From Alphaproteobacteria bacterium GM202ARS2 (GTDB lineage Bacteria; Pseudomonadota; Alphaproteobacteria; GM7ARS4): a stretch of DNA of 64,000 nt. The DNA is taken from positions 59,239 to 123,238 of the forward strand of contig JACONH010000002.1 in assembly GCA_014323835.1 (NCBI GenBank), written 5' to 3'. Position 1 is the first letter of the stretch. Each line of letters opens with the position of its first letter. The notes below the pieces were generated by a model. It saw only the letters and a program-made list of their open reading frames with translations. It searched no databases and was not told the DNA's origin. The position numbers and the translations under genes were made by a program. Of the stretch, positions 7,274 through 36,829 are shown piece after piece.

Positions 7274-8377
7274 ATGACACAAAAAAATAAAAAAGCGCAA
7301 AAACTCCAGCAAGACATCGAAAGGCAACTGGCAACCATGAAGGGGACGGACGGACACCCTCTGTTGACCGACAGAGACGAAGGGCGCGTCGACGTCTCGT
7401 GGTCGCCAAACCGCCCGCGAGTCATTATCGATATCGGCACACACGCACCCGTAGCCTATCAGCCCCTTGTGGCTCAACTGAAAAAAGAAGGAATCGATGT
7501 GGTGTTGACCTCAGCACGCCCGCCACCCCAACAAGTGCCACAACCGAAAGGGTCGCCCCCGCCCGAGCGTCCCAAACAAACCTTTGATAAGATTAAGTTA
7601 CCGAATGTGCGCTATCGTCTGGCGGTCACGTGTGCCAAGGGGGGTGTGGGCAAGTCCACAACCGCGGTGAATGTGGCTCTTGCCTTTGCTGCTCGTGGCT
7701 TGAAGGTGGCTTTATTGGATGCGGATATTTATGGGCCGTCTTTGCCTTTGATGATGGGGCTTTCTGGTTCGTTACGCAAAAGCCCGCGCGGTAAAATCGA
7801 ACCGATGTATCGCTATGGCGTTGCCTGTATGTCTATTGGCTTGATGTTGCCACAGCGTGAGGACGCGCTCATTTGGCGGGGCCCCATGGTGATGGGCGCG
7901 CTACAGCAGATGCTCCGTGATGTGGATTGGGGCGAGCGCGATATTCTGGTCATCGATATGCCGCCGGGCACAGGGGACGCACAACTCACACTAGCACAAC
8001 GCTTGGATGTAAGCGGCGCCGTCATCGTCTCGACACCGCAGGATGTTGCCCTCTTGGATGCCCGTAAGGGCTTTTACATGCTCAAGCGCACGGGTATTGC
8101 GGTTCTGGGCATGGTCAATAACATGAGCCTATTCGTCTGTCCCCATTGTGGCAAAGAAACAGAAATTTTCGGGAGCGATGGCACACACCAGCAAGCAAAA
8201 GAACTGGGCATTGCCGTGCTGGCAGATATGCCGTTAAGCCTTACCCTTCGGCAGTCTGGCGATAGTGGCACGCCGCTTGTGGTGTCGCATCCCGACAGCA
8301 GTGAGGCACAGACCTATAGCCGTATGGCAGATAAACTGCTTACAGCGCTGGAGGCACAGGAGAAGCAGAAAGCCTGA
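7274..8377 (+). CDS. apbC: Mrp/ApbC/NBP35-family iron-sulfur cluster carrier ATPase
   Basis: It has the deviant Walker A CAKGGVGKSTTAVNVA and the CPHCG cluster-ligand motif. Confidence 0.9.
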   Translation: MTQKNKKAQKLQQDIERQLATMKGTDGHPLLTDRDEGRVDVSWSPNRPRVIIDIGTHAPVAYQPLVAQLKKEGIDVVLTSARPPPQQVPQPKGSPPPERPKQTFDKIKLPNVRYRLAVTCAKGGVGKSTTAVNVALAFAARGLKVALLDADIYGPSLPLMMGLSGSLRKSPRGKIEPMYRYGVACMSIGLMLPQREDALIWRGPMVMGALQQMLRDVDWGERDILVIDMPPGTGDAQLTLAQRLDVSGAVIVSTPQDVALLDARKGFYMLKRTGIAVLGMVNNMSLFVCPHCGKETEIFGSDGTHQQAKELGIAVLADMPLSLTLRQSGDSGTPLVVSHPDSSEAQTYSRMADKLLTALEAQEKQKA

Positions 8378-9429: not shown

Positions 9430-9930
9430 ATGGCAAAAAACACGCAGCTATCTTACGATGTAGGCGACACTGTTGTTTATCCCGCCCACGGGGTTGGACG
9501 TGTCATCGGCAAAGAAAAAACCACCTTCGATGGCGAAGCCCTCGAGTTTTATGTCATCAATTTCGAAGGCGAACGCATGGAACTACGTGTGCCGGTTGAA
9601 CGTGCGGATTCTTCAGGTTTGCGTAAGCTCAGCTCACGAGAACGGATGAAGAAAGCCGTTACGATTCTACAGGGAACGCCGAAATCGAAGAAAGCGATGT
9701 GGAGCAGGCGGGCACAAGAATACGAATCCAAAATTAACTCGGGTGATCCGGTGTCTATTGCCGAAGTCTTGCGAGACCTACGCAGAGACGAAGGAAGCGA
9801 ACCTTCTTACTCGGAGAAACAGATCTATCAGACCGCCTTCGAAAGATTCGTGCGGGAATATGCCGAAGTCGAAGCGCTGGAGCCGGACAAAGCCGTCTGC
9901 AAAATCGAAGAAATCATCAACGCCGCCTGA
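9430..9930 (+). CDS. carD: CarD-family RNA polymerase-binding transcriptional regulator
   Basis: It has the N-terminal Tudor-like motif GDTVVYPAHGVGRVIG. fdxA-carD adjacency is typical of alphaproteobacteria. Confidence 0.9.
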   Translation: MAKNTQLSYDVGDTVVYPAHGVGRVIGKEKTTFDGEALEFYVINFEGERMELRVPVERADSSGLRKLSSRERMKKAVTILQGTPKSKKAMWSRRAQEYESKINSGDPVSIAEVLRDLRRDEGSEPSYSEKQIYQTAFERFVREYAEVEALEPDKAVCKIEEIINAA

Positions 9931-9942
9931 GCAGAAAAAAAA

Positions 9943-10159
9943 TGTTTCACGTGAAACAATGGTCATAAAAAAAATAAATTGTTTCTCGTGAAACAATTTT
10001 TATAACAATTGTTTAACATGAAACGATTCGCGCAAAAAAATGTTTCGCGCGAAACAATTCGCGCAAAAAAAAGATGTTTCACGTGAAACAATTGCCGTAA
10101 AAAAATAGAATGTTTCTCGTGAAACAATTCGGGCAAAAAAAGATGTTTCCCGTGAAACA
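9943..10159. repeat. tandem array of seven parS-type 16-bp palindromes (candidate ParB-binding centromere)
   Basis: Copies lie at 9943, 9980, 10010, 10041, 10075, 10111 and 10144. Two are exactly TGTTTCACGTGAAACA. The others differ by 1-3 nt, mostly at the central positions. Each copy is preceded by an A6-9 tract, with a period of 30-37 bp. Confidence 0.75.
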
Positions 10160-10214
10160 ATTTCTATGCGGGCGGAGGGGGTGTTGCGGGGGTGTTAGGA
10201 TAGGTGTATAAGTG

Positions 10215-10287
10215 TGCCGCAGGAGGGAATTGAACCCCCGACCTATGCATTACGAATGCACCGCTCTACCAACTGAGCTACTGCGGC
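10215..10287 (-). tRNA. tRNA-Thr (anticodon CGU)
   Basis: The reverse complement folds as a cloverleaf: GCCGCAG/CTGCGGC acceptor stem, GCTC-AGTTGGTA-GAGC D-arm, anticodon loop TTCGTAA, and T-loop GGTTCAATTCC. CCA is not encoded. Confidence 0.9.
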
Positions 10288-10357: not shown

Positions 10358-11725
10358 ATGGCGGAGAGTGTTCGGGGTGGTGGTATTGTTGATAGTGAGC
10401 GGGGCGTGTGTGTTGTGGGCATGGGTTATGTGGGTTTGACTCTGGCGGTTGCTTTGGGGGAGTGTGGCTTTGACGTTTGGGGCGTTGAGCGTGACGAGGG
10501 TTTGTTGTCGTCTTTGCTTTCTGGCGAGCCTCATTTTTACGAGAAGGGTTTTGCGGTGCGGATGCGTCGTGCTTTGCAGCAGGAGACGTTGCATTTTGTT
10601 TCTTCGGTGAAGGAGGTGGGTGCGTCTCGTGAGGGCGTATCGGTTTTTATTCTTACGGTGGGGACTCCGTTGGATGCTGAGGGTGTGCCGCGTATGGATA
10701 TGATTGAGCGTGTTGCTGCTGAGGTGTGCGAGCATCTTGTTGATGGTGGTCTTGTGATTTTGCGGTCGACGGTGCAGGTGGGCACGACGAGGCGGGTTGT
10801 TTTGCCGCGTTTGGAGGCGACGGGCAAGGCGTTTATGTTGGCGTATTGTCCCGAGCGGACGGTGGAGGGGCATGCGATGGCAGAGTTGGTATCGTTGCCG
10901 CAGGTGGTTGGTGGTTTGGATTCGTCATCGGCGTGGCGGGCGGCGTTGTTCTTTCAGCACATGACGCCGACGACGGTGCGGGTTTCCAGCCTTGAGGCGG
11001 CGGAGACGATTAAGCTTCTTGACAATAGTTTTCGGGATGTGTCTTTTGCTGTGGGCAATGAGGTGGCTTTGTTGTGTGATGCTTTGGGGCTTGATGGCAG
11101 AGAAGTCATTCAGGCGGCGAATACGGGTTATGTGCGCACGCAGATTCCTCAGCCGGGCTTTGTGGGTGGTCCTTGTTTGCATAAGGATCCGCATATTTTA
11201 GAGGAGTCGTTGCGGGCGAGCGGGCATGTTCCGCAGTTGATTAAGTATGGGCGTATGTTGAATGAGTCGTTGCCTCGTTATGTTTGTGAGCGTGTGGCGA
11301 CGGCGGCGTCTTTGGGCGATGGGCGCGGGCATAAGATCGCGGTGATGGGCATGGCTTTTAAGGGTAGGCCTGAAACCAGTGATGTGCGTGCGTCGCCGAG
11401 CATCGATGTGCTGGAATTTTTGCGTCAGGCGCACCCGCATGCCCAGTTATGTGCGCATGACTTCATTGTTGCTGATAGTGTCATCGAGGCGATGGGTGTT
11501 CAGGCTGTGTCGGTTGAGGAGGGCTTTCGGGATGCCTCTGCTGTGATTATTGCAACGAACAACGAGCGTTATCAGTGGCTTGAAGTCGATGCGTTGGCAG
11601 CGACTATGGGGCAAGCGCGGGTTATTTTTGATGTTTGGTCGGTGTTGCCGTCTGCCGAGCAGACTCAGCAGGCGCGGGGGTATACGTTGTTGCGGTTGGG
11701 TGCGGGCGGAGGGCTGGTCTCATGA
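10358..11725 (+). CDS. nucleotide-sugar dehydrogenase (UDP-glucose/GDP-mannose dehydrogenase family)
   Basis: It has the N-terminal Rossmann motif VCVVGMGYVGLTLAVAL and the catalytic-Cys motif GFVGGPCLHKDP. I placed the start at the in-frame ATG (MAES...) at 10358; the track start at 10319 is also possible. Confidence 0.85.
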   Translation: MAESVRGGGIVDSERGVCVVGMGYVGLTLAVALGECGFDVWGVERDEGLLSSLLSGEPHFYEKGFAVRMRRALQQETLHFVSSVKEVGASREGVSVFILTVGTPLDAEGVPRMDMIERVAAEVCEHLVDGGLVILRSTVQVGTTRRVVLPRLEATGKAFMLAYCPERTVEGHAMAELVSLPQVVGGLDSSSAWRAALFFQHMTPTTVRVSSLEAAETIKLLDNSFRDVSFAVGNEVALLCDALGLDGREVIQAANTGYVRTQIPQPGFVGGPCLHKDPHILEESLRASGHVPQLIKYGRMLNESLPRYVCERVATAASLGDGRGHKIAVMGMAFKGRPETSDVRASPSIDVLEFLRQAHPHAQLCAHDFIVADSVIEAMGVQAVSVEEGFRDASAVIIATNNERYQWLEVDALAATMGQARVIFDVWSVLPSAEQTQQARGYTLLRLGAGGGLVS

Positions 11726-12737: not shown

Positions 12738-13496
12738 TTAGGGTTGTTTTTTATGTCCCCAGACAATCAATTTTTCTAAATTTCTTACATAATCCTTCTT
12801 CGGAAGAGAAAGGACAGCGTAGTCGTCTCGGGGTGCTTCTTGGCGCAAGAGGGAAATCGTTCTTTCGTGGTCATTCGTGGTGATGTAGCCTGCGGTCGCC
12901 TTGTTGAGGACTTTTTGGATATACATTTTTATCAGCGAGTCGGGCAGCTCGGAAAGGGCGTAGTTGCTGATAACAAGGTCATAGGTTTGTTGTCCATCGC
13001 ACTGATTCAGGGTCGAGAGTCGATAAGAAGAACGCAAGAGGTGGTGTTCGAGGTAGCGTGTCGTGAGTTGCAGAACGGGCTGGAGGTCAAACAGGTGATA
13101 GGCGCGCATAGCATGGACGCGGTCGAGAACGAGGAACTGCCCGCCAAAGCCGACCCCAATTTCGGCAACAGTTGTATCATCGAGGCGACCGAACAGCTGC
13201 TCAATATAGGCAGCAATAGCCACATAGCGTATCGTGATGCAACTGATAGCGCCCGTCTGTGAAAACTCGTGCAATCGGGGTTTGCCGATAAGGTCATTGA
13301 CTTTGAATGTGTCGATGTCTTTGAGATAGTCGGGCTGGTTTTTCTCTAGCCATTGTATGTAGGAGGCACTTTCTTCTTTACTAATTCCTTCGTAGATTTG
13401 TAAGAAGGTTGGCTGTGACCTGAATTGTTGGAAATAGCTGGAGTCTTGCAGGGCGCGCAAGACGTTTTTGATATAGGGGTTGTACTGTTCCGACAA
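12738..13496 (-). CDS. class I SAM-dependent methyltransferase (putative sugar or small-molecule O-methyltransferase)
   Basis: It has motif I VAEIGVGFGGQFLVL and a motif DLVISNYALSEL. It is visibly more AT-rich than the flanking genes. The substrate is unknown. Confidence 0.6.
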   Translation of the reverse strand: MSEQYNPYIKNVLRALQDSSYFQQFRSQPTFLQIYEGISKEESASYIQWLEKNQPDYLKDIDTFKVNDLIGKPRLHEFSQTGAISCITIRYVAIAAYIEQLFGRLDDTTVAEIGVGFGGQFLVLDRVHAMRAYHLFDLQPVLQLTTRYLEHHLLRSSYRLSTLNQCDGQQTYDLVISNYALSELPDSLIKMYIQKVLNKATAGYITTNDHERTISLLRQEAPRDDYAVLSLPKKDYVRNLEKLIVWGHKKQP

Positions 13497-13608
13497 GCTT
13501 TCGTTATCAGGAAGACTGATAGGGATGGGCTGAATTTTTTGCAGTTTTTTTTCTTTCTGTGCTCGAGTCTTTTACGGTTGAGGGCTTTTATGGTTTGTAT
13601 GAATGTTT

Positions 13609-15012
13609 TCATTGGCTGAATTTTTTGATGATGGTTTGTGCGCACTCTCGTCCTTCTCGGATAGCCCAGACGACGAGGGATTGTCCTCGTCTTGTGTCGC
13701 CACAGGCGAAGACGTTGGTTTGTGAGGTGGTGTAGTCGTTGTCGTTGGCGAGGATGTTGCCTTTGGCATCGAGTTTGACGCGGCTTTCTTTTATCAGTTG
13801 GTCGTGGCGGGTATGGAGGAATCCCATTGCCAGCAACACGAGGTCGGCGGGCAAGGTGCGGGTGCGGTTGGTGGGCTCGGGCTTGCCGTTTTGCCAACGC
13901 ACTTCTTGGATGGTGAGGGCGGTGATGCGGTTGTCTTCGGTGACAAAGCCGTTGGTTGCCACCGACCAGAGTCGCTCAGCGCCTTCTTGGTGCGAGGTGG
14001 AGGTGCGCAACTTATGGGGCCAATAGGGCCACGTGCTGTTCTTGTCTTCTTTTTCGGGCGGTTTGCCGAGAATCTCCAGTTGCGTGATGGAACGTGCTTT
14101 TTGGCGATTGGCGGTGCCGATACAGTCGGAGCCGGTATCGCCGCCGCCGATGACGATGACGTGTTTATCTTTGGCGGTGATGGGTGTGTCGCTGTGCTGT
14201 TCGTTGCGGATGGTGCGGTTTTGTTGCGTCAAATAGTCCATGGCAAAGTGGATGCCGTCGGCGTTGCGGCCTACGAGGGGCAAATCTCGTGGCATTTCCG
14301 CACCGCAGGCGAGCACAATCGCATCGTGGTCGGCTCGTAGGGCAGACCACGTCATGCTGGTGCCGATGTGACAATTCAAGTGGAAGACGACCCCTTCGGC
14401 TTGCATTTGGTCGATGCGTCGATCAATGAGGTGTTTTTCCATTTTGAAGTCGGGAATGCCGTAGCGGAGCAAGCCGCCGGCTGAGGCACTCTTTTCGAAG
14501 ACATGCACATGGAAGCCGCTGCGTGCCAGCTGTTGCGCGCAGGCTAAGCCCGCAGGCCCTGAACCGATAATAGCGATGCGTTCTTGTCGTTGTTGCTGGG
14601 GTTTTTGTGGCGTAATCCAGCCTTGTTGCCAGCCGTGGTCGATGATGGCACACTCGATATCTTTGATGGAGACGGGCTCGTCAATGAGATTGAGGGTACA
14701 CGACGCTTCGCAGGGGGCGGGGCAGACTCGCCCGGTGAATTCGGGAAAGTTGTTGGTGGCATGTAGACTCGCCAATGCGGTGTGCCAGTCGTCTCGGTAA
14801 ATCAGGTCGTTGAATTCGGGAATGATGTTGTTGACCGGGCATCCCTCGTGACAGTAGGGGATACCGCAGTCCATGCAGCGCGCGGCTTGCTGTTGGAGCG
14901 ATGCCGAATCGAGAGGAAGCCGAAATTCCGCAAACGACTGTCGTCTTTCTGCGACGGGGCGTGTGCCGTGCGTTTGTTTCTCGTAATCTAGGAAGCCGGT
15001 GATTTTGCCCAT
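13609..15012 (-). CDS. gltD: glutamate synthase (NADPH) small subunit
   Basis: It has the MGKITGFLDYEK N-terminus, Cys clusters (CMDCGIPYC, CPAPCE) and the IAIIGSGPAGLA FAD/NAD motif. Confidence 0.95.
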   Translation of the reverse strand: MGKITGFLDYEKQTHGTRPVAERRQSFAEFRLPLDSASLQQQAARCMDCGIPYCHEGCPVNNIIPEFNDLIYRDDWHTALASLHATNNFPEFTGRVCPAPCEASCTLNLIDEPVSIKDIECAIIDHGWQQGWITPQKPQQQRQERIAIIGSGPAGLACAQQLARSGFHVHVFEKSASAGGLLRYGIPDFKMEKHLIDRRIDQMQAEGVVFHLNCHIGTSMTWSALRADHDAIVLACGAEMPRDLPLVGRNADGIHFAMDYLTQQNRTIRNEQHSDTPITAKDKHVIVIGGGDTGSDCIGTANRQKARSITQLEILGKPPEKEDKNSTWPYWPHKLRTSTSHQEGAERLWSVATNGFVTEDNRITALTIQEVRWQNGKPEPTNRTRTLPADLVLLAMGFLHTRHDQLIKESRVKLDAKGNILANDNDYTTSQTNVFACGDTRRGQSLVVWAIREGRECAQTIIKKFSQ

Positions 15013-21500: not shown

Positions 21501-22784
21501 CTAGTCGCTCTCTTTGTCATTAGCGGGAGTCTCTAGGGGTTTCATGTGTAGCTTGATAACTTTTTTCGGTGTTGCCACCAGCACCGTGAATTCGAAGCCA
21601 TAAAAGCGAAAACGCTGGTGACGCTTGGGCACAGTGCGGGTTTCATTCATTATCAAGCCCGCTATTGTCGCGGCATGCTCGTCAGGGAGCTGCCAACTCA
21701 GCGCGCGGTTAATGTCGCGGATGGCGATGTGTCCTTCCACGACGATACTGCCGTCTTTTCGTTTGCTGATACCCGGCGAGGGATGATCGAATTCGTCTCG
21801 AATATCGCCGACAATTTCTTCCAGAACATCTTCCAGCGTGACGATGCCGCGCAGTGTGCCGTATTCGTCTACCACCATAGCCATGTGTTCTTTTTTGACT
21901 TGGAAGGCACGTAGCTGGTGCAACAGGGACGTGCTTTCCGGGATGAACCACGGCGGCGATAGGTCTTTCAGCAACTGGGCTTTATCTTTGCGGGCGCGGT
22001 AGTCATTCTTGAGAATGTTTTTGACGTGCAAGATACCGATGATGTTGTCGCTTCTGCCTTTGGTGATAGGAATACGCATGTGCGGACACTGCACTGCTTT
22101 GTCAATCAGCGTCCGGATATCGAGATTCTCATCGAGGGTAAAGACATCTTGCCGATGCACCATGATATCTTCCACCGGCACATCATCGAGGTCGAGAATG
22201 TTTTTCAGCATATCGCTTTCATCGATGGTCTCTTGACTTTGGGCGTGCAGGTCGATAGCCCCCAGCAGTTCTTCTTCGTCTTTTTCGGTTTGCTGGGTGG
22301 TGCTCTTCGGCGTGAAGGGATAGAGCATAACCAGCACCATGACATAAGCCAGACGAGCAAAAGGTGACAAAAGAATCACCATCGTGTTCAGCACCGGGGC
22401 AACAAACAACGCCAGCTGATTAGGATTACGCAGCGCGTATGTTTTCGGCAACGTCTCGGCAAAAACAACAATCAGTGCCGACATAACTACAGTGGCAAGA
22501 AACACGCCGGTTTCTTCGCCATACAGCGTAATAAACAGACTAGCAGCAAGGGCAGAGGCGAGGGTGTTGACGACATTGTTCGCCAAGAGCAACGTGCTGA
22601 TGACTCGTTCTCGGTCTTGGCGTAACTTTTCCACCAGTTGCGCTCGTTTTTTGCCTTGCTTCGCCCAGCGATGCAGCCGCGAGCGCGAGGCACCCGTCAT
22701 AGCCGTTTCCGTCCCAGACAAAAAGCCCGATATCAGCAACAAAACCACAATGGCAATGATAACGACATTCATCGAGGGGCTCAT
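21501..22784 (-). CDS. CNNM/HlyC/CorC-family transporter (DUF21 plus CBS pair plus CorC_HlyC)
   Basis: It has N-terminal TM helices (FLSGTETAMT motif), a CBS pair and a C-terminal CorC domain. The start at the ATG at 22784 overlaps the aroB stop (ATGA); the track ORF extends to 22820. Confidence 0.85.
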   Translation of the reverse strand: MSPSMNVVIIAIVVLLLISGFLSGTETAMTGASRSRLHRWAKQGKKRAQLVEKLRQDRERVISTLLLANNVVNTLASALAASLFITLYGEETGVFLATVVMSALIVVFAETLPKTYALRNPNQLALFVAPVLNTMVILLSPFARLAYVMVLVMLYPFTPKSTTQQTEKDEEELLGAIDLHAQSQETIDESDMLKNILDLDDVPVEDIMVHRQDVFTLDENLDIRTLIDKAVQCPHMRIPITKGRSDNIIGILHVKNILKNDYRARKDKAQLLKDLSPPWFIPESTSLLHQLRAFQVKKEHMAMVVDEYGTLRGIVTLEDVLEEIVGDIRDEFDHPSPGISKRKDGSIVVEGHIAIRDINRALSWQLPDEHAATIAGLIMNETRTVPKRHQRFRFYGFEFTVLVATPKKVIKLHMKPLETPANDKESD

Positions 22785-30568: not shown

Positions 30569-30607
30569 GTATGTTTATTCCTGTCGTGCACGTGTGGCAA
30601 CGAGGCT

Positions 30608-30686
30608 GGGGAACAACGAGGTTGGGGGACAACGGGTTGAGGGGCAATGGGGTAGGGACAGCAGGTTGAGGGGTGGTTGTGAAGGG
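30608..30686 (+). repeat. G-tract array in the porin-1 leader (8 runs of G3-G5 with a period of about 10-16 nt)
   Basis: Read directly: ctggggaacaacgaggttgggggacaacgggttgaggggcaatggggtagggacagcaggttgaggggtggttgtgaaggg. Confidence 0.8.
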
Positions 30687-30760: not shown

Positions 30761-32515
30761 ATGAACGTAACAATGAAGGGTTATTTTTTCAAAGGTATCT
30801 ATGGGGCAATGGCGTGGATTGTGGCATGCTTTGCTGTAACGAGTGATGCTCGTGCCGATGTTCAAGTTTTAGGTAAGGATGGCTGGCAGGTCACGGTCGG
30901 CGGTTCGGTCAATGCTTTCGGTGTGTATTCGACTCGGGGTGTCATCGAGGATGCCAACGTTGCCGATAGAACCTACCCGGGCTATTCGGGCAGCGACGGC
31001 GATACGTTCCGTGTGCAAAATGGTCTGTTGCCAGCGGTGTTTGGCTTCAATGTCAATGCCCCTGAAACATCCGATGGCTTGCAGATGTATGCCCGCTTGG
31101 GTTTGTATCCGCACATTCACAACTACAATCGTGAAAAGAATAAACTCGAACAAAACAACCAAGACAACCAAAACAACATCGGGAGCACCCTCGATTTGCG
31201 TGAGGTGTTCTTTGGTGTCCGCACCCCCGAACATGGCGACTTCGTTGTCGGTAAGACTTTGGGCATTTTCTTGGGCAAGAACATTTTGACCGATATGACT
31301 CTGTTCGGCGTTGGTGCCACAGGAGAAACCAATAAGCTGGAGGGAAGCACCTCGTTGGGACGTATCGGTTATGGTTATGTCTATCCAAACTTTAATGTGG
31401 CGTTCCGCTATAACAGTGCGGACTTCCGCAACACGCGCTTTTCTGTCGGTGTCTATGACCCGTCGGTGGTGCGTGGCTACTCGGATCCTCGCGATGCTGG
31501 TAGCACTGAGAAGAACATCAGACGGACTGAAGCAAACAACACATCCGAGCCGCGCTTGGAAATGGAAATCAGCAACGACATGGAAGTCGGCGATGTCGCC
31601 GTCAACAGCTGGATTAACGGCATGTATCAACGCACCGGTTGGCAAGGATCCCATTGCCGCAATAACGTTGTCGATGAACGAATCATTGGTCGAGAAGGCG
31701 GGACGACAGATGCGCCCGATGATATGGACACAAGATTTATTAGGTCAGCGCGTCGAGTGCTCCTCAGTGCTATCGAAAACGACGTAACCGATTTCGATGG
31801 GGCAACGGCTATTCTGGCACAGACATCAGGACGAACAGTGGATCAGGCAAAAAACCGCTATAATTTAAAACGCTATAATTTAGGACTTAAAAACTCTGAA
31901 GACCCTGAAGACTTGTTGACTGAAAATGCCAGAAACCTCGACACAGCGAAGTTGCGTCGTCTCTTGCGTAATGACTTGACAGAGTATGACCCCAGCGATG
32001 ATGTGACCGAGGGGAACACCGAGGGGAACGTTTCTTATATTGAATCCCTCGCGCAAAACTCGGGATGCAACTCAAACCCCATCTCTTGGGGTGTCGGTGT
32101 CGGCATGCAAGCCCGCTATGGTGGGCTAACAATCACCGGGAGTGGCTATTGGGGACGAGGACTCGGCACATTGCTTATGCTCGATACGGATGCTTTGGAT
32201 TACTACGGCAATCCTATCAAACATTATGGCTACATCGCACAAGTCACCTATGACTTCGGTCAGGGCACCGGTGCAGGTATCAGCTTCGGGGCGACATTCG
32301 CATCGCCCGGCGGCAGCTTCGACATCGGCTTCATGCACGATGTCATCAACACTTCGCAGGTGCGCAAACGCCAACTGTTCGACTTGATGCTGTGGCACAA
32401 CGTCAACGACAACGTGCGACTGGTCGCAGAATATGGCAACGCCCAAGTCGAGTGGTTCGACAGAGCCTCTGCCGATAACAATCTGTTCTCGTTCGGTGGA
32501 TTCTACTTCTTCTAA
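30761..32515 (+). CDS. outer-membrane porin, paralog 1 (with a large loop insertion)
   Basis: It has a signal peptide (ACFAVTSDARA), alternating beta-strand pattern and a C-terminal FSFGGFYFF. It shares long blocks with the next ORF (FRVQNGLLPAVFGFN, RLGLYPH.HNYNREKNKL, IGSTLDLREVFF, GKNILTDMTLFGVG). A GAGGAG SD lies upstream. Confidence 0.75.
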   Translation: MNVTMKGYFFKGIYGAMAWIVACFAVTSDARADVQVLGKDGWQVTVGGSVNAFGVYSTRGVIEDANVADRTYPGYSGSDGDTFRVQNGLLPAVFGFNVNAPETSDGLQMYARLGLYPHIHNYNREKNKLEQNNQDNQNNIGSTLDLREVFFGVRTPEHGDFVVGKTLGIFLGKNILTDMTLFGVGATGETNKLEGSTSLGRIGYGYVYPNFNVAFRYNSADFRNTRFSVGVYDPSVVRGYSDPRDAGSTEKNIRRTEANNTSEPRLEMEISNDMEVGDVAVNSWINGMYQRTGWQGSHCRNNVVDERIIGREGGTTDAPDDMDTRFIRSARRVLLSAIENDVTDFDGATAILAQTSGRTVDQAKNRYNLKRYNLGLKNSEDPEDLLTENARNLDTAKLRRLLRNDLTEYDPSDDVTEGNTEGNVSYIESLAQNSGCNSNPISWGVGVGMQARYGGLTITGSGYWGRGLGTLLMLDTDALDYYGNPIKHYGYIAQVTYDFGQGTGAGISFGATFASPGGSFDIGFMHDVINTSQVRKRQLFDLMLWHNVNDNVRLVAEYGNAQVEWFDRASADNNLFSFGGFYFF

Positions 32516-32634: not shown

Positions 32635-32940
32635 GGTGACCTTTGATTTTTTTCAAAGGTTGCCCTAACGGGTGCGTCATTTTTGGGGGGCGTGGTGGTT
32701 ATAGATGAGCAAGGCAATACGTCTTGACATTCTGTTTCTTTTGCGTGATGATGCACTTTAGGGAGTAGGGGGCAGGACGCTTCGATTTGAGAAGAGACGC
32801 TTAAACGAGGTTAAACGTGGCATCTAATGTCCCATCTTTTTGGGGGTGGAGCAACAAAGAGGGAAAAGGGCAGAGAAAGGGCATAAAAGGGTGAGATAGG
32901 ATAGAGGATGCTTTGGTTTGTTAGCACTTTGGAGGATGAA

Positions 32941-34296
32941 ATGAGATCCGTTTTGAAAAATAAGACTTTGATGTCGATGGTTACTTTGTTTGCTGGTATC
33001 TGGCTGTCGTTACCGACGCCGGTGCGGGCAGAAGTCGTTTTGATGGGCAACGATGGATGGGAAGTATCCATTGATGGCTCAGTCAATACGTTTGCTGTTT
33101 TCTCTGCACGAGACAGCATTGAAGATGCCACTGTTGATGCCGACGAGTATTTCGGTGGAGCCGCTGGCTCTGGCGCGGCGAAAGCCAACGATAACACCTT
33201 CCGTGTGATGAATGGTTTGTTGCCGGCAGTCTTCGGTTTCAACATTAAGGCACCGACGATTAATAATCTGAATATGTTTTCTCGCTTGGGCTTGTATCCG
33301 CATGTTCATAACTACAATCGTGAAAAGAATAAGCTGGGACAAAACAACATTGGGAGCACCCTCGATTTGCGTGAGGTGTTCTTTAGTGTTACGCATGACA
33401 AGTATGGGTCGATGCTGTTCGGTAAAACGTTGAGCTTGTTCTTGGGTAAGAACATTTTGACGGATATGACGTTGTTTGGTGTCGGTGGGGTCAGTCATGG
33501 CGTGTTTGATGGGGCTGGTGATGGCAACACCCTTGCGGGAAGCACGACTCTTGGGCGCATCGGTTTTGGCTATGTTTATCCGAACTTCAATGCGTCTATT
33601 CGTTATACGACTCCCACGTTTAATAATGCGCAGTTGTCTGTGGGTATCTATGACCCGTCGCGTATTGGCGGGAGTGATGATGCTAATAGATTCACCGAGA
33701 CTCCTGAGCCGCGTCTCGAGGCTGAGTTGTCCCATACGCATACGTTCCGTAGCATTGGCTTGTCGGTGGATTCGTGGGGGAATGCCATGTATCAGAATGC
33801 TGAAAATGGCGATGGTGGTGACCGTGGCTCTGCGCAAGCATGGGGACTCGGCGGTGGCTTCCAAGTCAAGTGGGAAGGTTTGGCTCTGACCGGTAGTGGC
33901 TATTGGGGTAAGGGACTCGGTTCTATCTTGATGTTGGATACCGATTCTCTCGACCACGAGGGCAATACTCGCCGTAACTATGGTTATATCGCACAAGCCA
34001 CGTATGACTTGCCGGACACCATCCTTAAGGATGTCGGCGTTGGTGCTAGCTTGGGTGCTTCCTATAACTCTGCCACGGGTGCAGAAAGAGCACGAGGACA
34101 CCTTCCACAAGGTGATGACATAGTCAGGAATGCGACGTTGGTACGCCACAATCGTTTGATTGACTTCATGGCGTGGCATAACTTCAACCCCAATCTGCGT
34201 CTGGTCGGCGAATTCGGCGTCCAGAACGTACGCTGGAGAGATGGTGCTAATGTAGACAGCTACATCTTCTCTATGGGTGGTTTCTTCTTCTTCTAA
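32941..34296 (+). CDS. outer-membrane porin, paralog 2
   Basis: I placed the start at the ATG at 32941, preceded by GGAGGA. It has a signal peptide (...LPTPVRA/EV) and the C-terminal FSMGGFFFF. It is a paralog of 30761-32515. Confidence 0.75.
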   Translation: MRSVLKNKTLMSMVTLFAGIWLSLPTPVRAEVVLMGNDGWEVSIDGSVNTFAVFSARDSIEDATVDADEYFGGAAGSGAAKANDNTFRVMNGLLPAVFGFNIKAPTINNLNMFSRLGLYPHVHNYNREKNKLGQNNIGSTLDLREVFFSVTHDKYGSMLFGKTLSLFLGKNILTDMTLFGVGGVSHGVFDGAGDGNTLAGSTTLGRIGFGYVYPNFNASIRYTTPTFNNAQLSVGIYDPSRIGGSDDANRFTETPEPRLEAELSHTHTFRSIGLSVDSWGNAMYQNAENGDGGDRGSAQAWGLGGGFQVKWEGLALTGSGYWGKGLGSILMLDTDSLDHEGNTRRNYGYIAQATYDLPDTILKDVGVGASLGASYNSATGAERARGHLPQGDDIVRNATLVRHNRLIDFMAWHNFNPNLRLVGEFGVQNVRWRDGANVDSYIFSMGGFFFF

Positions 34297-34413: not shown

Positions 34414-34507
34414 CGAGACGTAGGGTTTGCATAGCAAAGCATAGCGTATTATAATACAACGGGTGGGGCGTGATGAGGGTGTGATTGTGGTGAGGAGCAA
34501 ACAGGCA

Positions 34508-35494
34508 ATGCAACGAGCGAGCAAAAGATTTTTTGGGCTTATAGCGATGGCATTTTTTGCTGTCCTACCTGGTGTTGTCGAGGCAGGCGGGGGACGTTAT
34601 GGCGACCCGGGTGGTGTGCGGGAGGTTTTGTGGCATCGGGATGATTTTTTTGTCCGTATCGAAAGGCAAGACCGTTTGCGTAATGGCGATGTGCCGCCGC
34701 GCAATGATCATCCGTATCGTCAGATTACGGCGGAGGGGGTTGTTGCGGCGTTATCGAATATTTTGATTCAGGAGAATCCTTCAGATCCGCCTCAGCTGTT
34801 CTTTTCTCAGCGTGCTCTCGATGTTTTGGCGACGTATATTCCTGAGGGCTTGGAGAGAGCCAAGCCTAACGAGGACGTTACGTTTGCGGTCAAGTCGTGG
34901 CATGAGAAGGCTTTGACGTTTGCGACTCCTTTGGTGTTGACTGGGCGTGTTTTTGTTCGTGATGGGGCGTTGAATGTTATTTTGGGCGAGATGCGTCCGC
35001 CTAACAAGGTGTCGCAATCTTTTGCTGAGTTATCGGCGTTGAATAAGGATCCTCGTTTGCATCCTTATATTCCGGGTTTGCGTGGTTATCGTGTTCGTAA
35101 TCGGTATGTGTTGTCGGCGGTGGGGGATGGTATTTATCATGCGCCGAATCGTCCGCAGGACTGGTTGATTTTTACGCCGGGCAGTTATTCGGCATTTAGT
35201 CGTCCGTTGCAGGCGATAACGGAGGAAATTCGTGGCAAAACAGTGGAGGATTTGGAGCAACGCAAGGCGCGCCGTTTGAAGCCTCGTAAGGCGGAGACAC
35301 AGTCGGCAGATGAGTTGCGCCGTTTGCGTGACGAGCTGTCTCGTCTTAAGAAGCGGGTTGACGGTGAGACGTCGGAGCGTCGCTCGGCGGCGTTGGAGGC
35401 GCGTTTGCAGGCTCTCGAGCGTATGCGGGAGCGGGGGCTTATCAGTGAAGAAGAATTCGAGCGTAAACGCAAAGAAGTCTTAAAGGACATGTAG
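34508..35494 (+). CDS. secreted hypothetical protein with a C-terminal coiled-coil and SHOCT-like tail
   Basis: The ATG at 34508 follows GAGGAG. It has a signal peptide (FFGLIAMAFFAVLPGVVEA). The C-terminus LERMRERGLISEEEFERKRKEVL matches the SHOCT short C-terminal domain pattern. I do not recognise the core. Confidence 0.55.
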   Translation: MQRASKRFFGLIAMAFFAVLPGVVEAGGGRYGDPGGVREVLWHRDDFFVRIERQDRLRNGDVPPRNDHPYRQITAEGVVAALSNILIQENPSDPPQLFFSQRALDVLATYIPEGLERAKPNEDVTFAVKSWHEKALTFATPLVLTGRVFVRDGALNVILGEMRPPNKVSQSFAELSALNKDPRLHPYIPGLRGYRVRNRYVLSAVGDGIYHAPNRPQDWLIFTPGSYSAFSRPLQAITEEIRGKTVEDLEQRKARRLKPRKAETQSADELRRLRDELSRLKKRVDGETSERRSAALEARLQALERMRERGLISEEEFERKRKEVLKDM

Positions 35495-35515
35495 CCCTTG
35501 TAGTTTTGTGGGGGT

Positions 35516-35892
35516 TTGTCAGGCGACCTGTAAGCCGGGTTTTGTCGGGGATGAGCATTTATCTTAAGCTGTGCATGAGCACGTGCTTTGTTGCGTCTTA
35601 CCCGAGCATTAAGGCTTGAGACGTTGCCCCAGCGATAGGATGCGTGGCATCCTTGTGCTGATGCTCCTTTTAGACTTGCTCCGGGTGGGGTTTACCTATG
35701 CCATCTCTGTTACCAGCGATGCGGTGCGCTCTTACCGCACCTTTTCACCCTTACCGATGTTTGACCATTGGCGGTTCTTTTCTGTGGCACTTTCCCTGAA
35801 GTCGCCTTCGCCGCGCGTTACACGGCACCCTTGTCTCACGGAGCCCGGACTTTCCTCACCCAGATAGGTGCGCTCATCCAGTCGCCTGACGT
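35516..35892 (-). ncRNA. rnpB: RNase P RNA (bacterial type A)
   Basis: The reverse strand contains GAGGAAAGTCCGGGCTCC (P4), GTGCCACAGAAAA, GGTAAGGGTGAAAAGGTGCGGTAAGAGCGCACC, GGTAAACCCCACCCGGAGCAA and ACAAAACCCGGCTTAC. P1 pairs GTCAGGCGAC at both ends. The ends are good to within a few nt. Confidence 0.95.
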
Positions 35893-35998
35893 GGGTAGTG
35901 TAAGGGTTTTTCTTCTTTGATTCAATGGGGCAATGAGCGATTGATACGCTATCTTGACAGAGAGATGATGTGTGTCATAATTGGATGGAGGAGAGCGT

Positions 35999-36652
35999 AT
36001 GCTTTTGAATGTCATGCAGTCTGTTTTTTCGGATAAGGGGCGTGCATCGGTCGCCCGACATTTACTCGATTGCGGTGCGGTCACGGTGGACGTGCATAAA
36101 CCTTTTACGTGGTCATCGGGGCGTAAGAGCCCCATTTATGTCGATTGTCGCCGTCTTTTGTCTTATCCTGCTGAGCGTCGGGCGGTCATGGATGCGGCGG
36201 CGCGTATGCTGGCACCCTTCATCGATAAGCAAACGTTGCTTGCCGGCGGCGAGAGTGGTGGCATTGGTTATGCGGCGATACTGGCGGATAGATTGTCGCT
36301 ACCGATGGTTTATGTGCGCAAGAAGGTGAAGGGCTATGGCTTGAATAAAGCCATAGAGGGCGATACTCGTGATTGTCGTCATGCTGTGCTGATTGAAGAC
36401 CAGACGACCGATGGTGGCAGTAAGGGGCATTTTATCGAGGCACTACGGCAGGCGGGTTTGTCGTGTCAGCATGCTTTTGTTATTTTCAGTTATGAGACGG
36501 CATTGTTGCAGAGTCGTATGAAGCAATGGGGGGTTGCGTTACATTGTTTGTGTTCGTATCGAGATGTTATGGATGCGGCGGTGGCTTTGGGGCGGTTGAC
36601 TCGTGCAGACGTGGCGCGTGTGGATGAATTTATAGCGTCTTTAGCTGCCTAA
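35999..36652 (+). CDS. pyrE: orotate phosphoribosyltransferase
   Basis: It has FTWSSGRKSPIYVDCR and the PRPP-binding motif VLIEDQTTDGGS. The ATG at 35999 follows GGAGGAGAG; the track start at 35981 is a TTG. Confidence 0.9.
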   Translation: MLLNVMQSVFSDKGRASVARHLLDCGAVTVDVHKPFTWSSGRKSPIYVDCRRLLSYPAERRAVMDAAARMLAPFIDKQTLLAGGESGGIGYAAILADRLSLPMVYVRKKVKGYGLNKAIEGDTRDCRHAVLIEDQTTDGGSKGHFIEALRQAGLSCQHAFVIFSYETALLQSRMKQWGVALHCLCSYRDVMDAAVALGRLTRADVARVDEFIASLAA

Positions 36653-36704: not shown

Positions 36705-36777
36705 GACCCCATCGTCTAGAGGCCTAGGACACCGCCCTTTCACGGCGGCAACGCGGGTTCGAATCCCGCTGGGGTCG
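36705..36777 (+). tRNA. tRNA-Glu (anticodon UUC)
   Basis: GACCCCATCGTCTAGAGGCCTAGGACACCGCCCTTTCACGGCGGCAACGCGGGTTCGAATCCCGCTGGGGTCG closely resembles canonical bacterial tRNA-Glu. The anticodon loop is CTTTCAC. CCA is not encoded. Confidence 0.92.
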
Positions 36778-36829
36778 CGCCACCCCGCGGAGGGGTCGCG
36801 CCCTGTGGTGTTGGTTGAGGTTGAATGAG

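Follow-up and report, generated by a model that had tools for sequence, protein, structure and literature searches.

A seven-copy tandem array of chromosomal parS sites, probably amplified from one ancestral copy, in an uncultured sponge-symbiont lineage

The centromere sopC of the F plasmid consists of twelve 43-bp direct repeats, each of which carries a 16-bp inverted repeat that is bound by SopB. In the alphaproteobacterium Caulobacter crescentus, the five strongest chromosomal parS sites lie within 5 kb, sites 3 and 4 share a 260-bp segment, and this tight clustering of strong sites has been proposed to compensate for limited ParB spreading (PMC5815017). Studies with synthetic arrays of 7, 13, 26 and 39 parS copies revealed that the condensation force of ParB in vitro rises with copy number, and that, in the assay used, at least 5-7 sites were needed (PMC8299390). 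Why the number and clustering of parS sites vary has been named as an open question in a review of the field (PMC7333895). When the literature was searched by phrase for tandem parS arrays that occur naturally on chromosomes, the results were confined to synthetic arrays, the plasmid systems repABC and pSM19035 and papers on other subjects.

The locus considered here was read in the MAG GM202ARS2 (1.83 Mb, 53.3% G+C), which belongs to Ca. Methylospongiales (GTDB o__GM7ARS4), a sponge-associated order with genomes of 1.6-1.9 Mb. The whole stretch of DNA that was analysed, 64 kb in length, is referred to as the window, and forms part of a 121-kb contig of JGI metagenome 3300017829; together with 10 kb upstream, 74 kb were read. 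Tandem Repeats Finder reported a single array (Table 1; period 34, 6.8 copies, score 181), and alignment of its units resolved them into an A-tract, a 16-bp parS palindrome and the trailing sequence ATT(C/G)(G/C)(C/G)GC. All seven 16-mers fall inside 217 bp, the copy number of seven being that read in a short-read metagenome assembly. The coordinates and sequences given for the palindromes in an initial annotation of this DNA were reproduced in full, as were the start-to-start spacings of 37, 30, 31, 34, 36 and 33 bp and the greater AT-richness of the array than of its surroundings (31.5% G+C, versus 53.2% for the window). Two details of the unit required amendment: the A-tract said to precede each copy is present as A7-A8 ahead of six of the seven and is absent at copy 3, and the ATT said to follow each copy follows six, copy 1 having ATG. 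The same annotation had suggested that the A-tracts are phased and that the DNA may be intrinsically bent, which was not borne out. At 10.5 bp per turn the phasing resultant was 0.23, compared with a random mean of 0.37, which gives no support to a coherent planar A-tract bend at that helical repeat; a resultant of 0.81 was obtained at 11.0 bp per turn only.

Table 1. The array, its sites and its flanking genes in the window, followed by parS clusters at other loci. Mismatches are counted against the reference consensus TGTTNCACGTGAAACA, with a cut-off of at most three; compact arrays elsewhere are given as copies x period.
Feature	Coordinates	Strand	Description
Whole tandem array	9935..10162	.	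seven ~33-bp units; Tandem Repeats Finder, unit alignment, composition
parS copy 1	9943..9958	.	TGTTTCACGTGAAACA, 0 mismatches
parS copy 2	9980..9995	.	TGTTTCTCGTGAAACA, 1 mismatch (position 7)
parS copy 3	10010..10025	.	TGTTTAACATGAAACG, 3 mismatches, degenerate, without A-tract
parS copy 4	10041..10056	.	TGTTTCGCGCGAAACA, 2 symmetric mismatches (positions 7, 10)
parS copy 5	10075..10090	.	TGTTTCACGTGAAACA, 0 mismatches
parS copy 6	10111..10126	.	TGTTTCTCGTGAAACA, 1 mismatch, variant identical to copy 2
parS copy 7	10144..10159	.	TGTTTCCCGTGAAACA, 1 mismatch; single site of L123 and both its flanks align here
carD/cdnL	9430..9930	+	CarD_TRCF_RID + CarD_C (Pfam); stop codon 4 bp ahead of first A-tract
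tRNA-Thr(CGT)	10214..10287	-	transcribed towards the array
Compact array, L031			5 x 34 bp; between rsmG and parA-parB
Compact array, L191			7 x 37 bp; between ParB-family gene and parA-parB; two-unit higher-order repeat
Compact array, L200			6 x 39 bp; beside rsmG
Compact array, L160			7 x 38 bp; between gyrA and tadA/dnaX
Compact array, Collinsella species			3 x 39 bp; compact parS array
Dense parS cluster, L087	6414-7911		1.5 kb
Dense parS cluster, L099	7008-7813		0.8 kb
Dense parS cluster, L092	5922-7979		2.1 kb

In sequence, the palindromes are chromosomal parS of the canonical type, with 0-3 mismatches to the consensus and with copies 1 and 5 as perfect matches, as initially annotated. 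Elsewhere in the 64 kb there is a single further match at the same cut-off, an isolated one with 3 mismatches at 22018. Counted as strand-hits, 15 matches were observed, compared with 1.72 +/- 1.51 (maximum 6) in 100 dinucleotide-preserving shuffles, none of which reached the observed number (0/100). The variation was correctly described as central and lies almost entirely at position 7. All seven copies agree at 11 of the 16 positions; copy 3 alone departs at positions 6, 9 and 16 and copy 4 alone at position 10, and only position 7 varies freely (A, T, A, G, A, T and C in copies 1-7). This position, which is position 6 in the numbering of Jalal et al., lies opposite a small residue of ParB and is among the two by which parS and the NBS of Noc differ (PMC7383237); tolerance of ParB for variation there is plausible. 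Pairwise identity is 88% among the cores, versus 44-89% (mean ~62%) among the spacers. This conservation of the cores beside diverged spacers, together with the orthologous site in a close relative described below, argues for selection on the 16-mer. Not all seven copies need be functional, as copy 4 has two central changes and copy 3 is degenerate and, judged by its sequence, probably weak or non-functional as parS. The palindrome of copy 2 is lengthened by its flanks to AATTGTTTC..GAAACAATT.

With a probability of roughly 0.78, the array is a genuine chromosomal centromere, at which the ParB/Spo0J CTPase clamp is loaded, and was amplified from a single ancestral parS; as such it probably marks the centromere of this uncultured sponge symbiont lineage. 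The features on which this reading builds, namely parS identity, tandem structure, a single orthologous site, chromosomal context and non-dispersal, were seen directly in the DNA.

The array lies, as proposed initially, in a chromosomal intergenic region between carD and tRNA-Thr, both of which were annotated there. The remaining annotated genes of the window are all housekeeping genes (ilvBN, miaA, htrA, mrp, fdxA, gltBD, aroBK, recJ, pyk, gap, ccmA-H, accBC and RNase P RNA), which places the locus on a chromosome and not on a mobile element. Gene order around the carD-tRNA-Thr spacer is common to the window and to two relatives, a close one on an ENA contig (L123; CarD 93% and AccC 95% identical) and a more distant one of the GM7ARS4 lineage (L124; CarD 63% identical). 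AccC is 81% identical to a protein of 'Alphaproteobacteria bacterium GM7ARS4'. These observations bear on the idea that the array is a REP/MITE-like or mobile-element repeat, or what is left of a plasmid or phage centromere that had integrated at the 3' end of tRNA-Thr. The identical gene order in both relatives, the single site already present at this position in the close relative and the lack of any integrase or mobile-element gene nearby all oppose such an origin, even though the 3' ends of tRNA genes, one of which adjoins the array, are classic sites of integration and canonical parS pairs occur on phage genomes. Furthermore, dispersal of the unit, which the initial annotation had named as grounds for abandoning a centromere, was not seen, no further copy being present in the window or the 10 kb upstream (74 kb in all). 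A mobile origin thus has next to no probability.

The orientation of the flanking genes is informative in another respect. Because carD and tRNA-Thr both point into the array, it lies downstream of both and not in a promoter, which argues against the palindromes being an operator set at which another protein, specific for GTTTC-N4-GAAAC, would control carD, tRNA-Thr or the sugar-nucleotide genes downstream. An operator would be in keeping with an intergenic site between convergent and divergent genes and with the promoter-like hexamers that overlap the array; however, the match covers the full 16-bp parS and not just a generic inverted repeat, and the same motif in compact arrays elsewhere adjoins parAB. 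We know of no regulator with exactly this motif, and an operator function is regarded as extremely improbable.

Read on the minus strand, six of the seven units (all but copy 3) consist of a hairpin and a T7-T8 run that begins 0-5 nt after it, and no other obvious terminator lies between the tRNA and the array. The main role of the array might therefore be that of a stack of intrinsic terminators that halts read-through from tRNA-Thr into carD, its likeness to parS being secondary. In the close relative, the A8 run beside parS belongs to a separate GC-rich hairpin with T8 on the tRNA strand, a further point in favour. A terminator scan did flag the copy-4 unit, but it passed only this one of the seven. 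The hairpins of units 1, 3, 5, 6 and 7 are weak, at -0.6 to -6.2 kcal/mol; the values for units 2 and 4 are -8.4 and -9.1 kcal/mol, that of unit 4 arising from a longer alternative stem, and most fold z-scores were not significant relative to shuffles. Moreover, two perfect matches to a 16-bp protein site and as many as seven copies are needless for termination. As the main explanation termination is very unlikely; it is plausibly a side-effect or a secondary use of a parS array. At the gathering score of Rfam 15 no family was found in the array, and the window yielded only tRNA-Thr, tRNA-Glu and RNase P RNA, the last being of bacterial class A (269 bits; 35515-35889, minus strand) and located just upstream of tRNA-Glu (36705-36778).

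Elsewhere in the window, three ORFs without Pfam matches (30761-32515, 32908-34296 and 35981-36652, plus strand; 584, 462 and 223 aa) adjoin the gene for a SHOCT-domain protein (34463-35494) in a stretch of ~50% G+C, which also contains 16-bp tandem repeats (30598-30673) and may be a lineage-specific island. In the upstream flank, some 5 kb before the window begins, a gene for an MT-A70-family methyltransferase, a family that is unusual in a bacterial housekeeping neighbourhood, adjoins mreB (L002, 14755-15363).

The statement in the initial annotation that the window contains no parA or parB was upheld, as no ParB-family ORF is present and the sole Pfam 'ParA' match (7274-8377, two genes upstream of the array) was rejected as a partition ATPase, belonging to the Mrp/NUBPL family of Fe-S carriers (PF10609). 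An HMM built from 105 ParB proteins of other loci was applied to the window, to its 10-kb upstream flank and to the loci of the relatives, and detected no ORF that resembles ParB. Genes for ParB, ParA and SMC were not found in the 74 kb or in ~62 kb of the close relative's contig, and none of dnaA, hemE and parAB was seen in the 74 kb. In the plus strand, GC skew from -9.9 kb to +64 kb of the window is positive or near zero without a sustained sign change, dipping in two 2-kb bins (-0.01 in the upstream DNA and about -0.1 at 20-22 kb of the window). This would place oriC outside the 74-kb span, to the left of the array and more than 20 kb from it. Strand asymmetry is very strong in this DNA, with GC skew of up to +0.35 in stretches of plus-strand genes and of about 0-0.1 in those of minus-strand genes. 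Genes for parAB are sometimes lost from reduced genomes. For the present array, ParB binding, an advantage of more copies and proximity to the origin are what we infer.

The initial annotation had called for a comparison of copy number among relatives, and this revealed seven copies here, one in the same spacer of the close relative and none in the more distant relative, in which no parS was found in the 20 kb read around the locus. Conservation of the site is thus shallow and not deep. The one parS-like site in the orthologous carD-tRNA-Thr spacer of the close relative, TGTTTCATGTGAAACA, aligns by MAFFT together with both of its flanks to copy 7 (GGCAA...GA-parS-(A)TTTCTAT), the remaining spacer being poorly conserved. 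Such a single orthologous site indicates that the seven-copy array is a lineage-specific amplification of a pre-existing parS, and the amplification, as judged from these alignments, would be recent and from a single ancestral site. The close relative has a further pair of parS sites, 32 bp apart, located 2.6 kb downstream between an epimerase gene and gltD; the equivalent spacer of the window contains no parS. These differences among the window and its two relatives show that the parS content of a small region turns over rapidly.

A 'remnant parS' beside gltD (13603-13615) was considered as the counterpart of this pair and was rejected, since in an ungapped alignment it proved to be the homologous region of the gltD stop codon; the window sequence that lies opposite the pair in the ungapped alignment is not parS-like. 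Between the epimerase gene and gltD, the window contains a 252-aa ORF without a Pfam match (12738-13496, minus strand) that lies just upstream of the spacer concerned, is absent from the close relative and may have been inserted when the pair was lost. In both relatives, a restriction-modification/defence island lies past the ornithine decarboxylase gene (L365, 1-7759; L366-L368, 1-7650), immediately past the position that corresponds to the right end of the window, and encodes N6_N4 methyltransferases, ResIII/SNF2 helicases, YagJ and AAA_15.

Two scans for such arrays show that they exist, their counts being lower bounds and not frequencies. The first searched GTDB species genomes for two parS sites 8-38 bp apart and gave at least 120 matches in many phyla; the second searched JGI/ENA metagenome contigs for three parS sites in tandem and also gave at least 120 matches. 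When sites were chained at spacings of up to 60 bp, the matches listed from the first scan included at least 17 loci with three sites, at least 4 with four and at least 1 with five; when sites within 300 bp were counted, the corresponding numbers among the matches listed were at least 24, 6 and 2 loci for three, four and five sites. Chains in the second scan comprised three sites in at least 87 loci, four in at least 19, five in at least 8, six in at least 4 and seven in at least 2, again among the matches listed (examples in Table 1). Compact canonical parS arrays are thus a recurrent natural feature. The initial description of the geometry as unusual and plasmid-style is therefore not supported, because many compact arrays of canonical parS occur in chromosomal contexts, with periods of 33-52 bp and up to 7 copies among the matches listed; the array described here is at the upper end of these sizes. 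A ParB gene lies within 3 kb of 13 of 25 genome loci and of 13 of 18 metagenome loci that have at least 3 kb on both flanks, among the matches listed, and both parB-adjacent and parB-distant arrangements are accordingly common. Two of the compact arrays, those of L031 and L191, occupy precisely the kind of neighbourhood in which a chromosomal parS would be anticipated. Within each compact array the spacers are related, which points to an origin by tandem duplication in those cases as well. Relatives of the present locus were not represented among the 120 genome loci listed from the parS-pair scan.

Denser clusters were also encountered, with 10-11 near-perfect parS sites within 0.8-2 kb in Moraniibacteriota and Parcubacteria (CPR) MAGs and in a Bacilli MAG (Table 1). 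In one of these (L099) the sites form three repeated triplets with spacings of 50 and 41 bp, indicative of higher-order duplication of whole parS clusters.

The recurrence of such arrays also bears on whether the present one is under selection. Alternatively, it could be a neutral or decaying tandem repeat, in which a former or redundant parS was expanded without selection by way of a slippage-prone A-tract, ParB being absent or the extra copies useless. The A7-A8 tracts of the unit favour slippage, copy 3 is degenerate and the copies differ at their centres, the GM7ARS4-lineage relative has no site, the genomes of the order are small (1.6-1.9 Mb), and no ParB was found in the DNA read (the window, the 10 kb upstream and the relatives' loci). 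Drift would, however, be hard put to leave 11 of 16 positions invariant and cores 88% identical among diverged spacers, or two copies that still match the consensus at 16/16 positions, and the close relative retains three sites whose arms are unchanged. Finally, arrays of this kind recur independently in many lineages beside parAB, among the matches listed, which argues against pure drift. A neutral repeat is therefore considered unlikely, and a centromere array remains the preferred reading.

The internal structure of the array offers some indication of how it grew. Spacers 3-4, 4-5 and 6-7 are 82-89% alike, and a two-unit block comprising copies 1-2 is identical to that of copies 5-6 in 63 of 79 columns, with mismatches mostly after the second palindrome. 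This likeness of block and spacers implies that the array grew in several rounds of duplication, one or more of which covered two units; the resemblance of copies 5-6 and their spacer to copies 1-2 suggests a two-unit duplication, which may have proceeded in either direction. A single ancestral parS in the carD-tRNA-Thr spacer would thus have given rise to seven units, likely through slippage during replication, or through unequal recombination, of a ~33-bp unit made up of left flank, parS and ATT.

A mechanism for the function of the centromere array can be proposed from the established ParB cycle. One ParB dimer would nucleate at each good copy (1, 2, 5, 6, 7 and perhaps 4), CTP binding, stimulated by parS, would shut the ParB clamp, and the clamp would then slide off and leave the site free again. 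Because clamp release frees each site, sites 30-37 bp apart would multiply clamp-loading flux and the local density of ParB. With five to six functional sites, the partition and SMC-loading complex would be focused on one 217-bp locus, and the array would probably strengthen or replace other centromere sites, of which the sister lineage has three. It may be speculated that occupied neighbours act as mutual roadblocks, in which case net escape would occur chiefly via the outer copies.

The array is not a new kind of system; compact canonical parS arrays recur across phyla. Its evolutionary origin, from one copy to seven in a little-studied symbiont lineage, is clear as far as the sequences tell. 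The locus provides a concrete route by which parS sites may increase in number, from 1 to 7 by tandem duplication since two close relatives parted, the sister lineage having 1 + 2 sites over 2.6 kb. It is a tentative possibility that local tandem amplification is a general and fast means of tuning ParB-loading capacity, and that the whole centromere of the chromosome consists here of one 217-bp array of seven sites remote from parAB. If so, this pair of genomes and the arrays in other phyla would represent a natural experiment on variation in parS number and clustering.

Among known systems, phi29-like phages resemble this locus in having closely spaced canonical parS sites on a replicon without a ParB of its own (0 of the 120 viral loci listed). 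They differ in that their sites are pairs and not long arrays, and in that the phage replicon parasitises a host system; phi29 exploits the host's Spo0J, with which the ParB-less viral loci are consistent. Many IMG/VR contigs of ~11 kb (L245-L364) have a canonical parS pair near each end; in one of them (L253; pairs at 252-309 and 11475-11532), genes for a protein-primed type-B DNA polymerase, a Gp16 packaging ATPase, a connector and a Phi29-type capsid identify a phi29-like podovirus. In synthetic arrays, too, several canonical parS sites are set close together; these arrays are engineered, were assayed with B. subtilis ParB in vitro and lack an evolutionary context. The F-plasmid centromere shares with the present array an organisation in tandem direct repeats, each with one 16-bp palindromic ParB-family site (PMC3177203), and here this organisation has a period of 34 and 6.8 copies. 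In contrast to the array, sopC has another motif, is bound by another ParB (SopB), is plasmid-borne, adjoins sopAB and has nearly identical repeats. The copies of the array are diverged, its motif is the universal chromosomal consensus and not one specific to a replicon, and its setting is chromosomal, being syntenic in two relatives and having no ParA or ParB gene in 74 kb, unlike a plasmid or mobile locus beside its own parA-parB.

Compact arrays in other chromosomes have the same motif, periods of the same order (33-52 bp), similar copy numbers and housekeeping contexts among the matches listed. They occur in unrelated taxa, have unrelated spacers without A-tracts and, in about half or more of the cases among the matches listed, lie within 3 kb of parB, unlike the present array. 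The chromosomal parS sites of C. crescentus have the 16-bp consensus TGTTTCACGTGAAACA in common with the array, and several of them are likewise close together. Here, however, the sites are seven true tandem direct repeats in 217 bp with spacer sequence in common, and the DNA that extends from 20 kb on the left of the array to 54 kb on its right contains no parAB. The presumed role is the same as in Caulobacter: nucleation of ParB, CTP-dependent clamp loading, and segregation that depends on ParA and SMC.
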